A stretch of 64,000 bases of DNA from a virus (IMGVR_UViG_3300044981_000214), one strand, 5' to 3'. Counted from the stretch's first letter, positions 34,826-63,109 are shown. Notes: generated from the sequence alone by a model not told the origin. Made by a program: numbers and translations.

Positions 34826-34858
34826 AAAGCCCGGTCGCAAGATCGGGTTTTGTTTTTT
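34826..34858. terminator. Bidirectional intrinsic terminator
   Basis: AAAGCCCGGTC-GCAA-GATCGGGTTTT then T-run, between convergent genes. Confidence 0.8.
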
Positions 34859-35156
34859 AACGTCGTCTATGCCTACGCCGACCCAATCCCGATTTTTTAG
34901 CAGCCCTTTTAGCCATCCACACGCCGATACCGATAGCTAATATCGCCCCTCCACCTAACAATGTGGTTGTGCTAAGTCCAAATAGAGATGTCGTTGCTGC
35001 CGTTGCATCGCCAAAGCCCTGCGGTCCAAATCCAACGTAATAGACGTTGGGGTCATACATATACGAATAGCTATCGTTGCCATACACGTTACTATAAATG
35101 CGCTGCTCATCATACGCACGACGCATTGGCGGTGGAACGATTTCGGTAGCGTTCAT
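34857..35156 (-). CDS. Small virion-type membrane protein (C-terminal TM + Arg tail)
   Basis: GFGD; TM; SGLGRRRHRRR. Confidence 0.7.
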   Translation of the reverse strand: MNATEIVPPPMRRAYDEQRIYSNVYGNDSYSYMYDPNVYYVGFGPQGFGDATAATTSLFGLSTTTLLGGGAILAIGIGVWMAKRAAKKSGLGRRRHRRR

Positions 35157-35704
35157 TTATAGAACCTTGGATATCTCCGACGACGGCGTCCAAATGCAGC
35201 CGTTCGAGACGCTTGCTGCTTATTATGCTTCATCAATATTACTGCAGTTGCTGCTATCGCAACCCCAGCCGCAATAAGGCCAAATACCATTCCCGTAGAA
35301 CTCGTTGTAATACCTGGCGTTGCTCCAGATGTTATTCCCATCGAGGCTAGTGTAGCTGCGGCTCCACCTGCACTGGTATTGATCTGGCCACAGGAAGCTG
35401 CAGAACCTCCACCAGCGATACATGCCGCAACGGGGTCAAACCCAGGAGTAAACCCTGACCCACTTGCAGTGGGCGTAAAGTTTATGCCTTGTGTACAAGA
35501 TGTTTGTGACCCTCCACCGGCAACACATGCAGCTACAGGATCGAAGCCTGGACTGAATCCCGATGCAGATGATGCTACGTTTGGTCCTGCGGACGCGCAG
35601 CTTGCAGCAGAACCCCCACCAGCAACGCACGCCGCAACGGCATCAAAGCCGCTACTAGTTTCGTCCCCAAACCCGACGCTGTCTTGTAGAGTTGCTGATA
35701 TCAT
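35153..35704 (-). CDS. Membrane protein with 3 Cys-pair repeats, TM and Arg tail
   Basis: GFDPVAACVAGGGSAASC-like x3; AAFGRRRRR. Confidence 0.75.
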   Translation of the reverse strand: MISATLQDSVGFGDETSSGFDAVAACVAGGGSAASCASAGPNVASSASGFSPGFDPVAACVAGGGSQTSCTQGINFTPTASGSGFTPGFDPVAACIAGGGSAASCGQINTSAGGAAATLASMGITSGATPGITTSSTGMVFGLIAAGVAIAATAVILMKHNKQQASRTAAFGRRRRRYPRFYK

Positions 35705-35707
35705 TGA

Positions 35708-36811
35708 TTAACCCCTTCTCGAAAAACGACGACCAAACCGATGGCCAAAGGCAGCCGGCTTTTGTTCACGCCGTTTCTTTACGACGTAAACGACTCCGCC
35801 AAGCGCTGCTAGACCTCCGATTAGGTATAGCCACGTGTAGGAGCCGGTTGCTGGAGCGGCATACGCTGCTCCACCAGGCGCTGCATAACTTGTCGCAACA
35901 CCACTGGGAGCGTAACCTCCACCTTGCGGTGCATATCCGGTTGGTGCATATCCGGTTGGCGCGTAACCGCCACTCTGATCCCCGCCAACAGGGTAGTTAT
36001 CTGTTGCATATTGATCACCAGAACCGTCTCCAGAACCGTCTCCAGTTGATGTATTGATATTGGACATATCAACACCGCCCGAAGAATCGATAGGTAGCGG
36101 TGTAGAGCCGTCGGGCGGTGGAGGTAGTGCCGCACTACCGCTGTCAGTAGCCGTCGCACTTACTTGTGGTGGTAGTTCAGGCTCATTGCCTGGAAGTTGA
36201 CCCGCAACGAATTGGCTGACTAGAGTAGGAATCTGTGGCGTGACTTGCTGCAAGTACGCCAGGATTTCTGGTGACATCTGGGCAATCATCGTTACCGAGC
36301 CGTCCTGCATAGCCTGTTGCAGGGTCGCATCTAGCGGCTGCAGGTTGGCTAGGACGTCGAGACAGAGAATCGTCCAAGAGTGAGTACCTTCACTGACGAC
36401 ACCGTCGTAGCCGCCTGCGGCACTGTTGAGTAGCGGAAAAGTCCCTAGCGTTGGTGTGCCCGCGGGGATACCTAATTTTGCAGCAAGTGCTGCTGGATCG
36501 GCCATGCCATACTGCTGCTGCGCTGCAGCGATAGCAGCTAGTGCCTGATCGACCGCTTGTTGCATCTGGTAGACAGTCTGCTCAGCTTGATTGCCTTCGG
36601 CCGTAGCCTGAGGTACGAGCCCATGATTTGCTTGAAACGTCGACAGTGGCCGACAAATCAAGAAACCTGCTTCGTTTTGACATTGAAATGCAGCAGCGCT
36701 AAATGACCCGAATTGTCCACGGTAACCGTACGCATTAATACCGGGGCTCGGGCCGACTCGCGTAGCGTAGCCATTAACGGTTTGGCTATCGACCTTAGTC
36801 GAGAAAATCAT
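35708..36811 (-). CDS. Membrane protein with low-complexity stalk, TM and Arg tail
   Basis: GYAPT repeats; TM; AAFGHRFGRRFSRRG. Confidence 0.75.
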   Translation of the reverse strand: MIFSTKVDSQTVNGYATRVGPSPGINAYGYRGQFGSFSAAAFQCQNEAGFLICRPLSTFQANHGLVPQATAEGNQAEQTVYQMQQAVDQALAAIAAAQQQYGMADPAALAAKLGIPAGTPTLGTFPLLNSAAGGYDGVVSEGTHSWTILCLDVLANLQPLDATLQQAMQDGSVTMIAQMSPEILAYLQQVTPQIPTLVSQFVAGQLPGNEPELPPQVSATATDSGSAALPPPPDGSTPLPIDSSGGVDMSNINTSTGDGSGDGSGDQYATDNYPVGGDQSGGYAPTGYAPTGYAPQGGGYAPSGVATSYAAPGGAAYAAPATGSYTWLYLIGGLAALGGVVYVVKKRREQKPAAFGHRFGRRFSRRG

Positions 36812-36851
36812 ACATCAATTAAACCATGATTGACGATAGCTTACAAGTAAT

Positions 36852-36867
36852 GATCGCGATAGCGATC
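36852..36867. promoter_or_regulatory. Palindromic site GATCGCGATAGCGATC
   Basis: Divergent intergenic region; symmetry extends with AAT/ATT. Confidence 0.75.
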
Positions 36868-36904
36868 ATTGCCTTTATGCCTCACTTTGAGGTAATATAG
36901 ATGT

Positions 36905-37249
36905 GTGGCGCAGTTCCGTATGCCTAGCGAGCAAGTACTCGATCAATCGCCTGTCGTAGTTGTAATGTTTACCCTAAAAGGGTGTCATTTTTGTATAGAT
37001 TTCAAACCGCGATTCCAGAAATTAGCTGCTCCATACGCCGATCTAGTACCGATCGTTATGGCTGATGCCAACGACCCTAAATTTGAGTCTCTGGCCAATC
37101 GACTCAACGTTCAAGGCGTTCCTGCTACGTTTGTACTACGCAAGCCAGCAGGTATGATTCGCGTCGACGGTGCCGTCCCAGATAGCCAAGTAATTTGGCT
37201 ATTGAATATTGCCGCCCGAGAGATGCGATACCCGAACTCAGCCTTTTAA
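36905..37249 (+). CDS. Thioredoxin-fold protein
   Basis: CHFC active site and cis-Pro motif GVPAT. Confidence 0.85.
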   Translation: MAQFRMPSEQVLDQSPVVVVMFTLKGCHFCIDFKPRFQKLAAPYADLVPIVMADANDPKFESLANRLNVQGVPATFVLRKPAGMIRVDGAVPDSQVIWLLNIAAREMRYPNSAF

Positions 37250-61424: not shown

Positions 61425-61437
61425 GTTATCCTGTCCT

Positions 61438-62142
61438 TTATGCGCCTATAGCCTGCGCGATGTCAATCAATAGTGTCGTTGGGTTCTTAGCCTGGCCAAC
61501 ATAAGTATCAAATTGACCTGGTGTTGTAGGCGCTGTAGCTGTTAAATTTCCAGCAGTCGTCGGATCAAGCCAATACTGGGCCCCGGGTGTTAGTCCGCCA
61601 ACTTCGCCTGTCACGACAGCATCCCACTGCGCTGTCGTAGCTACCAAAGGCCCTGCAGTTAGGATAGATCCTGAAGCACCAGAAGCAATCGAAGGTTGGG
61701 CTACAAGCCCAAAAACCTGGGCCGTGCTCGCAGCGTTCGCCCGAGCTAAATTTACATTATCAGCTACAGCTGTTTGGTATACAGCTTGACAAATAGTAAT
61801 TGAACTTCCATTAGCATTAGTACTTTGTAAAATCGCAGGATTTACGCTTCCTGCACTGCTACTAAGAATGAAAGGGAGCAACCCAGTCAATGCACCAGGC
61901 GGCGTAACAGCATCGATCGTGTGCCAAAATTCTACGTATACATCGACATTACCGGGCCCAGTTCCTCTTGTAACGGTCACATTAGTTGGAGAGACCGCGA
62001 TAGTAAATCCACCATTGTTTGGCAGTGTAATATTCGGTGTAACCGGAGCGCCCTTCACGTTCAATAGATGTGGAAGGGCTACTGGTACTCCCACTAGGAG
62101 GCCTGTGAACCTGACAATGTTCTTCAGGATTGACGTAGGCAT
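61438..62142 (-). CDS. Structural protein: anchor domain + capsid decoration-like domain
   Basis: N-terminus homologous to 45304-46455; AVY...LARA...FGL...GLTPGAQYWL. Confidence 0.65.
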   Translation of the reverse strand: MPTSILKNIVRFTGLLVGVPVALPHLLNVKGAPVTPNITLPNNGGFTIAVSPTNVTVTRGTGPGNVDVYVEFWHTIDAVTPPGALTGLLPFILSSSAGSVNPAILQSTNANGSSITICQAVYQTAVADNVNLARANAASTAQVFGLVAQPSIASGASGSILTAGPLVATTAQWDAVVTGEVGGLTPGAQYWLDPTTAGNLTATAPTTPGQFDTYVGQAKNPTTLLIDIAQAIGA

Positions 62143-62186
62143 CTCGACTAATTGTACAACAAAATCGAGGTCAAATGCAGTATTAG

Positions 62187-62405
62187 CTAGGGCTTGGACG
62201 CGCTCTTATCCACAGGCTGAATAGCAGATCGCCCCGTTATTTGTGTTGCTGTATGCATCACTGCATTGCCACTAACCAAGGTTCCAAATATTATGGCTAC
62301 TGTTGACGCCCATTCAGTCCCTGAAATCTTACCTAGATATGTAAGAACACAAGCAAGAATCAGAATCAGTACCCCCAGGGCATTGTGATTATCCAGTAAT
62401 CTCAT
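62187..62405 (-). CDS. Two-TM holin-like protein
   Basis: Two TMs, GKISGTEW turn, GNA. Confidence 0.6.
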   Translation of the reverse strand: MRLLDNHNALGVLILILACVLTYLGKISGTEWASTVAIIFGTLVSGNAVMHTATQITGRSAIQPVDKSASKP

Positions 62406-62434
62406 GTCGCTAACTATAGCAGTTTAGATTCGCT

Positions 62435-62713
62435 TCAGCGATTCAATAGTTTAACTAGATCAGAGAGCCACCGCTTCTTAAGCGTGATTACTTGCGCTTC
62501 AGTGGCTAGATTAGCATCGTAGGGTTTAAGCAGTCTTTCTATCTCTTGATAGTCTTGCCTGGTCTTAGCAGCACGTAATTGGCTGGCAGTAAGTTCCAAA
62601 AGGGTAGACACCCGATCAATTTCCCGCCCTAAAAAATCGGCGTCCGTCTCGACCTCAGTCTCTCTGACTTCCACTAATATTGCTAAATGTTTTTCTGGCT
62701 CCGACACGGGCAC
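62435..62713 (-). CDS. Hypothetical helical protein
   Basis: ORF; start uncertain. Confidence 0.5.
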   Translation of the reverse strand: MPVSEPEKHLAILVEVRETEVETDADFLGREIDRVSTLLELTASQLRAAKTRQDYQEIERLLKPYDANLATEAQVITLKKRWLSDLVKLLNR

Positions 62714-62760
62714 GATGTTCCCTTGTCATAGGCGACATGTCAAGCGCTATACTCGACGGT

Positions 62761-63109
62761 ATGCCGCGTATGCCCCGTAGACGTACCCCGTAGACGTAAG
62801 CCTATACAGACACAGACCAAGACCCAACCCGTATCGTACGTGATAATCTGTGCTGTCTGTGACAGGTCTTTTAGTACCTTTGACCCAACGGTAAGAACCA
62901 CGCCCGAACACCCTTGTTCTGGCAGCGGGCAGCTAGCCGATCCTCAAATCGTATCAGCAACGTTCGGCCAAGACCAAAATCTACTGGCCAAACTGCAGCA
63001 ATTACATACTGCTATGATTGCCGAACAAACAAAACAAGCCAACGCTTACTCAGCGTTGGCTAATTATCGACAGCAAGCGGCTAATATCGAAGCCGTGCTT
63101 AAAGGCTAG
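62761..63109 (+). pseudogene. Zn-finger/coiled-coil gene frameshifted by a 13-bp tandem duplication
   Basis: CCCCGTAGACGTA x2 (62773-62798); removing one copy joins ATG 62761 to ORF 62840-63109. Confidence 0.65.

Follow-up and report, generated by a model that had tools for sequence, protein, structure and literature searches.

Do the short dipeptides of an aromatic residue or leucine followed by glycine that recur in proteins of a large uncultured virus represent processing signals of a viral protease? The question is raised by a 64,000-nucleotide stretch of IMGVR_UViG_3300044981_000214 (hereafter, the window), in which a first-pass annotation listed about 11 otherwise unrelated proteins with [F/L/Y]-G (Phi-G) at domain boundaries and proposed that a viral protease cuts after the glycine, thereby removing leaders and Arg-rich tails. 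All of the peptides quoted there are present in the genes to which they were assigned. On the basis of sequence comparison with related genomes, the broad Phi-G proposal is mostly due to chance, and a subset of the listed sites forms a real and lineage-specific short linear motif, [A/S/G]-x-[L/F/M]-G, that in related genomes occurs together with a stand-alone cysteine peptidase of the C39 family.

The window belongs to an uncultured large prokaryotic virus with a genome of ~229 kb; the contig that holds the database record of its GHKL ATPase measures 228,894 bp. Its sole close relative, an ENA contig of 232 kb (loci L004 and L072), encodes a GHKL protein that is 75% identical to that of the window. 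Genes of the window are denoted below by their first coordinate (Table 1).

A narrow motif in three settings

The motif is found as a hinge immediately before C-terminal poly-Arg/Lys runs, at the end of short N-terminal leaders that are followed by Asp, and in the linker of the GHKL protein. The hinge occurs in small membrane proteins encoded in tandem as one family (34857, 35153 and 35708) and in tiny basic proteins (39548 and its relatives); the leader setting is represented by 35153 and 38277, and has an internal counterpart in 34857. The neighbouring genes 34857, 35153, 35708 and 38277 are mosaic paralogues of weak mutual similarity, and 39366, 39548 and 32649 are likewise paralogues, so that the description of the carriers as otherwise unrelated does not hold for all of them. 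One architecture is common to the four membrane proteins: a short leader ending in Phi-G, then Asp and an acidic Ser/Gly-rich stretch, and a transmembrane (TM) helix. In 34857, 35153 and 35708 the helix is followed by a short basic spacer, A-A-Phi-G (S-G-L-G in 34857) and an Arg run, and 38277 ends with G-S-F-G-R.

In the closest relative, the leaders vary in length and sequence yet end in LG-D or FG-D, and the tails retain the motif with other codons. Two relatives of 35153, L072 11124 and 11393, begin with ML..LG-D and ML..FG-D, respectively; one of them ends in AALG followed by five Arg, the last residues being identical, and as the codons differ while this tail peptide is kept, selection acts on the protein. 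The orthologue of 38277 (L072 7986) has a leader of another length that ends in FLG-D, and the leader of 38277 itself resembles the ML(AA)..LG-D start of the C39 family described below. The orthologue of 34857 is split (L072 11765 and 12193) and keeps both GFG-D and FG-S-poly-Arg. For 35708 a single database homologue was found (P0122, 58% identity), in which both sites are kept; the membrane cluster was therefore compared with one relative only.

The Phi-G-poly-Arg ending is also present on unrelated small proteins of the closest relative, and tiny basic proteins with Phi-G beside Arg runs, akin to 39548, were identified in loci L072, L075, L078, L079 and L081. The C-x3-4-Phi-G-polybasic ending that is seen in the orthologue of 32649 recurs in L076, L078, L081, L082 and L083.

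In the GHKL protein, DNFG-A is located in the linker that joins the ATPase domain to an N-terminal domain of ~75 amino acids (aa), and in the AlphaFold model residues 77-88 have a predicted local distance difference test score (pLDDT) below 50 between two confident domains. Phi-G is found somewhere in this linker in all eight of the nearest orthologues (8/8), even though the linker is otherwise unalignable and the flanks vary, and other GHKL clades have ANPE, a Met-rich stretch or RNPxIG at the same place. The MFFG start of the protein, which was also listed, is not conserved. At residues 561-577 the family has an invariant H-E-x-x-H followed by Y-H-D-E at the C-terminus, a pattern that suggests a fused zincin-like domain; no solved relative was found beyond the MutL-type ATPase part.

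C39 peptidases of related genomes

Of three genomes with a Phi-G linker whose GHKL neighbourhoods were compared, two have a C39-like gene no more than 10 kb away from GHKL, and a 167-kb contig carries both a C39 gene and a GHKL protein with a GFG/LG linker. The C39 protein scores 59.2 bits on PF03412 (cut-off 22), and the profile of the family matches ComA (3k8u/5xe8, E = 6e-8), LahT (6mpz) and PCAT1 (4ry2) in the PDB. In total, 35 stand-alone homologues of ~195 aa were found, with one C-terminal TM helix and no fusion to an ABC exporter of the PCAT/AMS kind. In an alignment of 24 sequences, Q18/Q19, C25, H109 and D125 are invariant and correspond to the papain-like catalytic set. The leader of 3-11 aa ends in Leu11 (at least 90%) and an invariant Gly12, followed by Asp, Gln or Glu, and on the C-terminal side there is a basic stretch, L/F-G (Gly166, at least 90%), the TM helix and a basic end. 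With LG at the end of the leader and L/F-G before the anchor, the motif of the window proteins flanks the catalytic domain on both sides, and in one genome an identical hexapeptide occurs in the GHKL linker and in the juxtamembrane linker of C39. Enzymes of the C39 family cut after the Gly that ends an N-terminal leader, and their classical substrates have a P2 Gly and are hydrophobic at positions -4, -7 and -12 (PMC10885120). The putative sites studied here read x-[L/F/M]-G, positions -3 and -4 being occupied by small residues, and follow neither this GG/GA/GS rule nor the -4/-7/-12 hydrophobic pattern.

The distribution of the motif follows that of the C39 gene. Phi-G directly precedes 7/20 polybasic C-terminal tails in the clade of the window vs 1/63 in other relatives (p = 1.3e-4), and when IMG/VR loci were chosen only for a C39 gene, the corresponding counts were 8/22 and, in C39-less loci, 1/61 (p = 6e-5). 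Many more such tails are found in the loci chosen by C39 from ENA/Logan and IMG/VR. On the C39 side, the residue before the terminal basic run is Gly in 18 of 55 cases, L or F being common at -2; at the same position on the C39-less side (n=61), Pro is the commonest residue at -1 and Gly is outside the six commonest.

No C39 was detected with the family hidden Markov model in four complete GHKL-bearing relatives. A profile search of 37 IMG/VR records that have GHKL but lack a clear Phi-G linker, 15 being at least 90% complete, found none either. These C39-less relatives lack a clear Phi-G GHKL linker and have almost no Phi-G-polybasic tails, with one possibly spurious case. Conversely, none of the 15 IMG/VR records with C39 carries GHKL, which indicates that the motif follows C39 and not GHKL. 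At N-termini, a proteome-wide enrichment of Phi-G-D was absent in four complete relatives, and a scan of all loci for ML[QM]..Phi-G returned few cases.

The broad motif and the listed sites

Among the 102 open reading frames (ORFs) of the window, 215 [F/L/Y]-G dipeptides were observed vs 199.2 +/- 12.5 expected from shuffling each protein, and 133 vs 114.5 in the late region, so that the broad motif is not enriched above chance. At a density of ~3.8 Phi-G per late protein, one site in each of 11 proteins is what would be expected. FG alone is more frequent in the window (57 observed vs 33 expected); this excess is explained by the NSN-x-x-x-FG repeat of five paralogous fibre-like proteins, to which ~20 FG copies belong and none of which was on the list. 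Within the first 20 aa of late proteins, Phi-G occurs in 11 of 35 vs 5.2 expected (p ~0.02, uncorrected), and there is no excess at their C-termini.

The five fibre-like paralogues (40915-42345, 45304-46455, 51039-51896, 51926-53848 and 53863-54915) are built of a ~40-aa repeat with the core N-S-N-x-[VIL]-[ST]-F-G and have conserved ends in common; no Pfam or PHROG family matches them.

As a baseline for conservation, 58 of 98 Phi-G dipeptides of any kind (59%) are kept between the window and its closest relative. About 11 of the 15 testable listed sites are kept, a proportion no different from this baseline, and four (MFFG, KRFG, YALG and RKSLG) are lost; these four are judged to be chance occurrences, and MSLG, ATFG and NYG are probably chance as well. 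About half of the examples that gave the list its breadth are chance or not conserved, and most of the list was inflated by chance dipeptides.

Table 1. Genes of the window that carry the sites discussed in the text, and the adjoining peptidase
Position	Strand	Product	Site and other features
32649..32927	-	92-aa basic protein	ends C-P-I-G-P + basic run; orthologue C-P-V-S-F-G-G + five Arg
33484..34776	+	kumamolisin-like S53 (sedolisin) peptidase without prodomain	adjoins membrane-protein cluster; PDB 1gt9 E = 3e-60; E..D and GTSAVAP motifs aligned
34857..35156	-	99-aa small membrane protein	conserved N-domain; GFG-D internal 35010-35015; TM 34920-34976; LG 34881-34886, then poly-Arg to stop
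35153..35704	-	183-aa membrane protein	13-aa leader ending GFG then D (35666-35671); three Cys-containing repeats; TM 35255-35311; AAFG 35189-35194 + five Arg
35708..36811	-	367-aa membrane protein	GQFG-S near N-terminus 36707-36712; TM 35780-35836; tail AAFG-H-RFG-RR 35732-35749
37476..38270	-	264-aa acidic protein	RKSLG-A judged chance, missing in closest orthologue
38277..38795	-	172-aa two-TM protein	9-aa leader ML..ILG then D (38769-38774); C-terminal GSFG-R 38301-38306
38795..39121	-	108-aa N-terminally anchored membrane protein	RRYG-Q at 38951-38956, status uncertain
39366..39512	-	48-aa basic protein, N-terminal Lys/Arg run	window copy without Phi-G; relative's orthologue RRGLG-A at same place
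39548..39691	-	47-aa basic protein	C-terminus AALG-G + poly-Arg run; LG 39572-39577; paralogue of 39366-39512 and 32649-32927
49505..50410	+	301-aa single-TM protein	KRFG-A and YALG-D judged chance
57544..57969	+	141-aa protein	start MSLG-A, probably chance
58000..59856	+	618-aa GHKL ATPase, C-terminal HExxH	Pfam PF13589; DNFG-A 58246-58251
62840..63109	+	89-aa zinc-ribbon-like ORF, coding score weak	ATFG-Q, probably chance

As to the individual sites, in the orthologue of the 49505 protein the first 85 aa are missing and the second site reads YDLIQ, no orthologue of 57544 was found in L004 or L072, and none of 62840 was detected in the closest relative. For 38795, the aligned residues in the relative are RQFG-R; with one pair of sequences at 37% identity, this does not exceed the 59% baseline. 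The leader of the 37476 family, in which a basic run precedes VDFG-DED in two relatives, was considered as support for the motif and rejected, as the Gly position is variable across 150 representatives; the conserved element in these is a basic leader followed by [VI]-D-F-[DGSN]-D-E-D-A-V-L, Gly being one option. This family is widespread (542 hits); its leader, which is rich in Lys/Arg and 5-50 aa long, precedes the conserved acidic motif [VI]-D-F-x-D-E-D-A-V-L, and some of its members are C-terminal domains of proteins of up to 3117 aa.

Several further observations concern the membrane-protein cluster. The TM helix and basic end of 35708 score 19.7 bits on the TIGR01167 LPXTG_anchor model (cut-off 15.9) and those of its orthologue 12.5 bits; an LPXTG sortase signal was rejected, as 35708 has A-P-A-T-G in place of LPXTG and no signal peptide, its orthologue falls below the cut-off and the other family members do not match. 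Apart from this marginal case, models of sorting signals (PEP-CTERM, GlyGly-CTERM and others) gave no matches. In 35153-35704 there are three tandem units of G-F-D-x-V-A-A-C-x-A-G-G-G-S-x-x-S-C. Where the window has the single gene 34857, the relative has two ORFs, split or frameshifted, and in L072 the mosaic family comprises 11393-11752, 11765-12193 and 12193-12384, two neighbours of which share a 66-aa segment at 80% identity. The cluster also contains a thioredoxin gene (36905-37249), with conserved counterparts in L072 and L074. At the position of the window S53 gene, L072 (12654-13370) encodes a protein of 238 aa, possibly an unclassified Cys enzyme, in which a G-D-C ... G-H-C pattern is found; Pfam gives no match for it, and its one homologue belongs to a distant relative (L015 710-1237).

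Proposed processing and alternative explanations

It is plausible that the narrow motif is the recognition and cleavage site of the phage-encoded, membrane-anchored, stand-alone C39 peptidase, a reading for which we consider the chances for and against to be about equal. The C39 peptidase would recognize [A/S/G]-x-[L/F/M]-G and cut after Gly; it would process itself, by losing its own leader and by being released from its own anchor, and would trim the leaders and poly-Arg tails of a small set of phage proteins. The support for cleavage comes from the retention of the motif in diverged termini, its tracking of C39 across relatives and its presence on both flanks of the C39 catalytic domain. 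The earlier proposal of a viral protease that cuts after Phi-G thus finds circumstantial support for a subset of sites and none for the list as a whole. The motif itself, its conservation, its restriction to one lineage, its co-occurrence with the C39 gene and the flanking motifs of the C39 family are directly seen in the sequences, whereas it is inferred that cleavage occurs, that C39 is the enzyme and that the genome of the window encodes a C39 peptidase of its own. As a more tentative extension, and one that we regard as rather improbable, poly-Arg tags at either terminus may at first keep otherwise unrelated proteins bound to DNA or to an assembly site at a membrane, and a C39 enzyme re-tuned from Gly-Gly to Leu/Phe-Gly may then remove the tags and free itself from its anchor.

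A number of observations weigh against C39 processing. Neither the 64-kb window nor 43 kb of sequence from its closest relative yielded a C39 gene. The classical site pattern of the family, with Gly at P2 and hydrophobic residues at -4/-7/-12, is absent at the putative sites. By the positive-inside rule, a single-pass protein should have its leader on one side of the membrane and its tail on the other, which is awkward for one protease. At N-termini, M..Phi-G-[DEQ] leaders are weakly enriched (18/388 vs 41/1546, p = 0.048, a count that includes the C39 genes), and basic leaders with Phi-G are not enriched (6/32 vs 22/151). In addition, the co-occurrence counts are of genes and not of independent events; since kinship links the C39-bearing genomes with one another and with the window, common descent may account for part of the association.

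Alternatively, the motif may be real and remain uncut: the Gly-hinged poly-Arg tails would be permanent, serving for example in DNA binding by the tiny basic proteins and as positive-inside or lipid-binding anchors behind TM helices, ML..Phi-G-D would have been inherited in mosaic paralogues, and the link to C39 would reflect common ancestry. This is possible, if on balance unlikely, and agrees with the small number of paralogous families among the carriers, the recurrence of several families across C39-bearing genomes that also have other genes in common with the window, the presence of a TM helix with a basic tail in C39-less relatives, and the weakness of the N-terminal enrichment. However, a hinge would need no preceding Leu or Phe, the many polybasic tails of the C39-less relatives are almost never preceded by Gly (1/61, Pro being commonest at -1), and the motif also occurs in unrelated contexts, namely the GHKL linker and both boundaries of the peptidase. 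It is hardly credible that all of the sites are chance or an artefact of composition in Gly- and Arg-rich low-complexity ends. Short motifs do arise in such termini, and comparisons within paralogous families inflate counts, but with the same gene caller the count was 1/61-63 in relatives of high GC in which Arg tails are numerous, codons vary while the peptide is kept, and LG is invariant in the C39 alignment.

Cleavage by another enzyme is quite unlikely. The candidates are the S53 peptidase, a retropepsin-like ORF (27362-27931), the HExxH end of the GHKL protein, which is invariant in its family, or a host protease. The S53 gene adjoins the membrane-protein cluster, and as kumamolisin-type enzymes favour basic residues in S1 it could trim poly-Arg tails; however, they prefer a basic residue rather than Gly at P1 together with Pro at P2, and have an acid optimum (PMC5935664). 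C39-less relatives in which the motif is missing have homologues of both S53 and GHKL. The S53 enzyme is probably not the Phi-G protease, and the match of the retropepsin-like candidate is below threshold, with 19.7 bits against a Pfam cut-off of 24.3. Homologues of S53 occur in an unrelated tailed-phage contig (L001-L003, 64% identity) and in G001, a distant C39-less relative (114327-116495, 55% identity), where the enzyme is fused to a 315-aa N-terminal extension. A general Phi-G code at the domain boundaries of at least 11 unrelated virion proteins, served by an AVP/Ulp1-like protease, is very improbable: it is in line with the marginal N-terminal excess in late proteins, but there is no overall enrichment, the listed sites are no better kept than any Phi-G, four of them are lost in the closest relative, the site of the 37476 family is not a Phi-G site, and none of the ~35 window proteins scanned against Pfam, a set outside which lie the small ORFs and the rest of the genome, matched an AVP/Ulp1-like family (C5, C57, C63 or C48).

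Genome context and relatives

The GC content of the window is ~50%; its compact genes with upstream AAGG-type ribosome-binding sites point to a prokaryotic host, and no tRNA genes were found in it. Recognizable genes encode DnaB, ParB, a MoxR ATPase with a VWA/metallopeptidase partner, a PEP-utilising-domain protein, a pectate-lyase-like protein of the tail-spike type, a LAGLIDADG/HNH endonuclease, the GHKL ATPase and an S8/S53 peptidase. The 506-aa homing endonuclease of the LAGLIDADG/HNH type (47939-49459) is inserted between structural-type genes and has a shorter homologue in L072 (281-1297). An ESM-Atlas look-up of 39913-40902 gave weak fibre-like leads only. In L004, a peptide-chain release factor with PCRF/RF-1 domains (16366-17034) is encoded a few kb from the GHKL gene.

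The GHKL protein has more than 350 homologues, many of them from contigs of 100-270 kb, and none among 50,697 cultured-phage records; searches of cultured phages for close DNA or protein relatives found none. The window has several further genes in common with the C39-bearing loci; its own contig was not among the results of a metagenome scan for C39. Single-sequence scans of IMG/VR with the GHKL and 37476 proteins gave no matches, an alignment query being required, and IMG/VR records that were reached via the S53 gene were dismissed as relatives, as they represent an unrelated tailed phage. In nine near-complete relatives of 110-221 kb (G001-G004, G039, G041, G042, G050 and G052), the HK97 capsid Pfam model gave no matches and Terminase_6N gave one sub-threshold match (a 616-aa ORF of G050).

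Comparison with known systems

We found no paper on a phage C39 processing system. If the proposed cut is real, this would be, as far as we could find, the first C39 leader peptidase to serve a phage as a multi-substrate processing enzyme. It would imply an altered P2 specificity and a new type of removable tag, a Gly-hinged poly-arginine, would offer a handle on protein maturation in a widespread lineage of uncultured viruses of 100-270 kb, almost none of whose genes are annotated, and may provide a compact protease-and-tag pair for biotechnology.

Tripartite sorting signals (LPXTG/sortase, PEP-CTERM and GlyGly-CTERM) resemble the membrane-protein tails in combining a low-complexity linker, a TM helix and a basic end; however, the conserved motif is here located after the TM helix and not before it. 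Viral cysteine proteases that cut beside Gly include adenovirus AVP (adenain), poxvirus I7 and pS273R of African swine fever virus (ASFV), and AVP releases a short basic C-terminal peptide (pVIc). These enzymes belong to other clans and families (C5, C57 and C63) and to eukaryotic viruses, and so the likeness is by analogy only.

By sequence and catalytic residues (the Gln/Cys/His/Asp set), the enzyme of the related genomes is a member of the C39 family (PF03412), together with the peptidase domains of ComA, LahT and PCAT1, and C39 is the closest known family. It differs from these in being a stand-alone enzyme with a C-terminal TM anchor, without an ABC transporter, and in being encoded by a large phage. 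Its putative sites have Leu or Phe and not Gly at P2, lack the -4/-7/-12 hydrophobic pattern and in many cases lie near C-termini before poly-Arg, and its putative targets are membrane and basic proteins and not exported peptides.

In terms of function, the closest working analogues would be T4 gp21 with its capsid-targeting sequences and gp245 of giant phages. For T4 gp21 and the giant-phage proteases (SPN3US gp245, AXE motif), one self-cutting protease removes short propeptides from several unrelated head proteins at a simple motif (PMC9958956, PMC10052503). The C39 system proposed here may work in a like manner, with one phage protease acting on short peptides at a simple motif, but gp21 and gp245 have a serine fold and cut after Glu, whereas the C39 enzyme is papain-like, with a catalytic Cys, and would cut after Gly; poly-Arg C-terminal tails are not a feature of the former, which act in a capsid context that is not apparent here. 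If tags are indeed trimmed, the process would be a functional parallel to the capsid-targeting sequences of T4 and to AVP/pVIc, yet built from a bacteriocin-leader protease.

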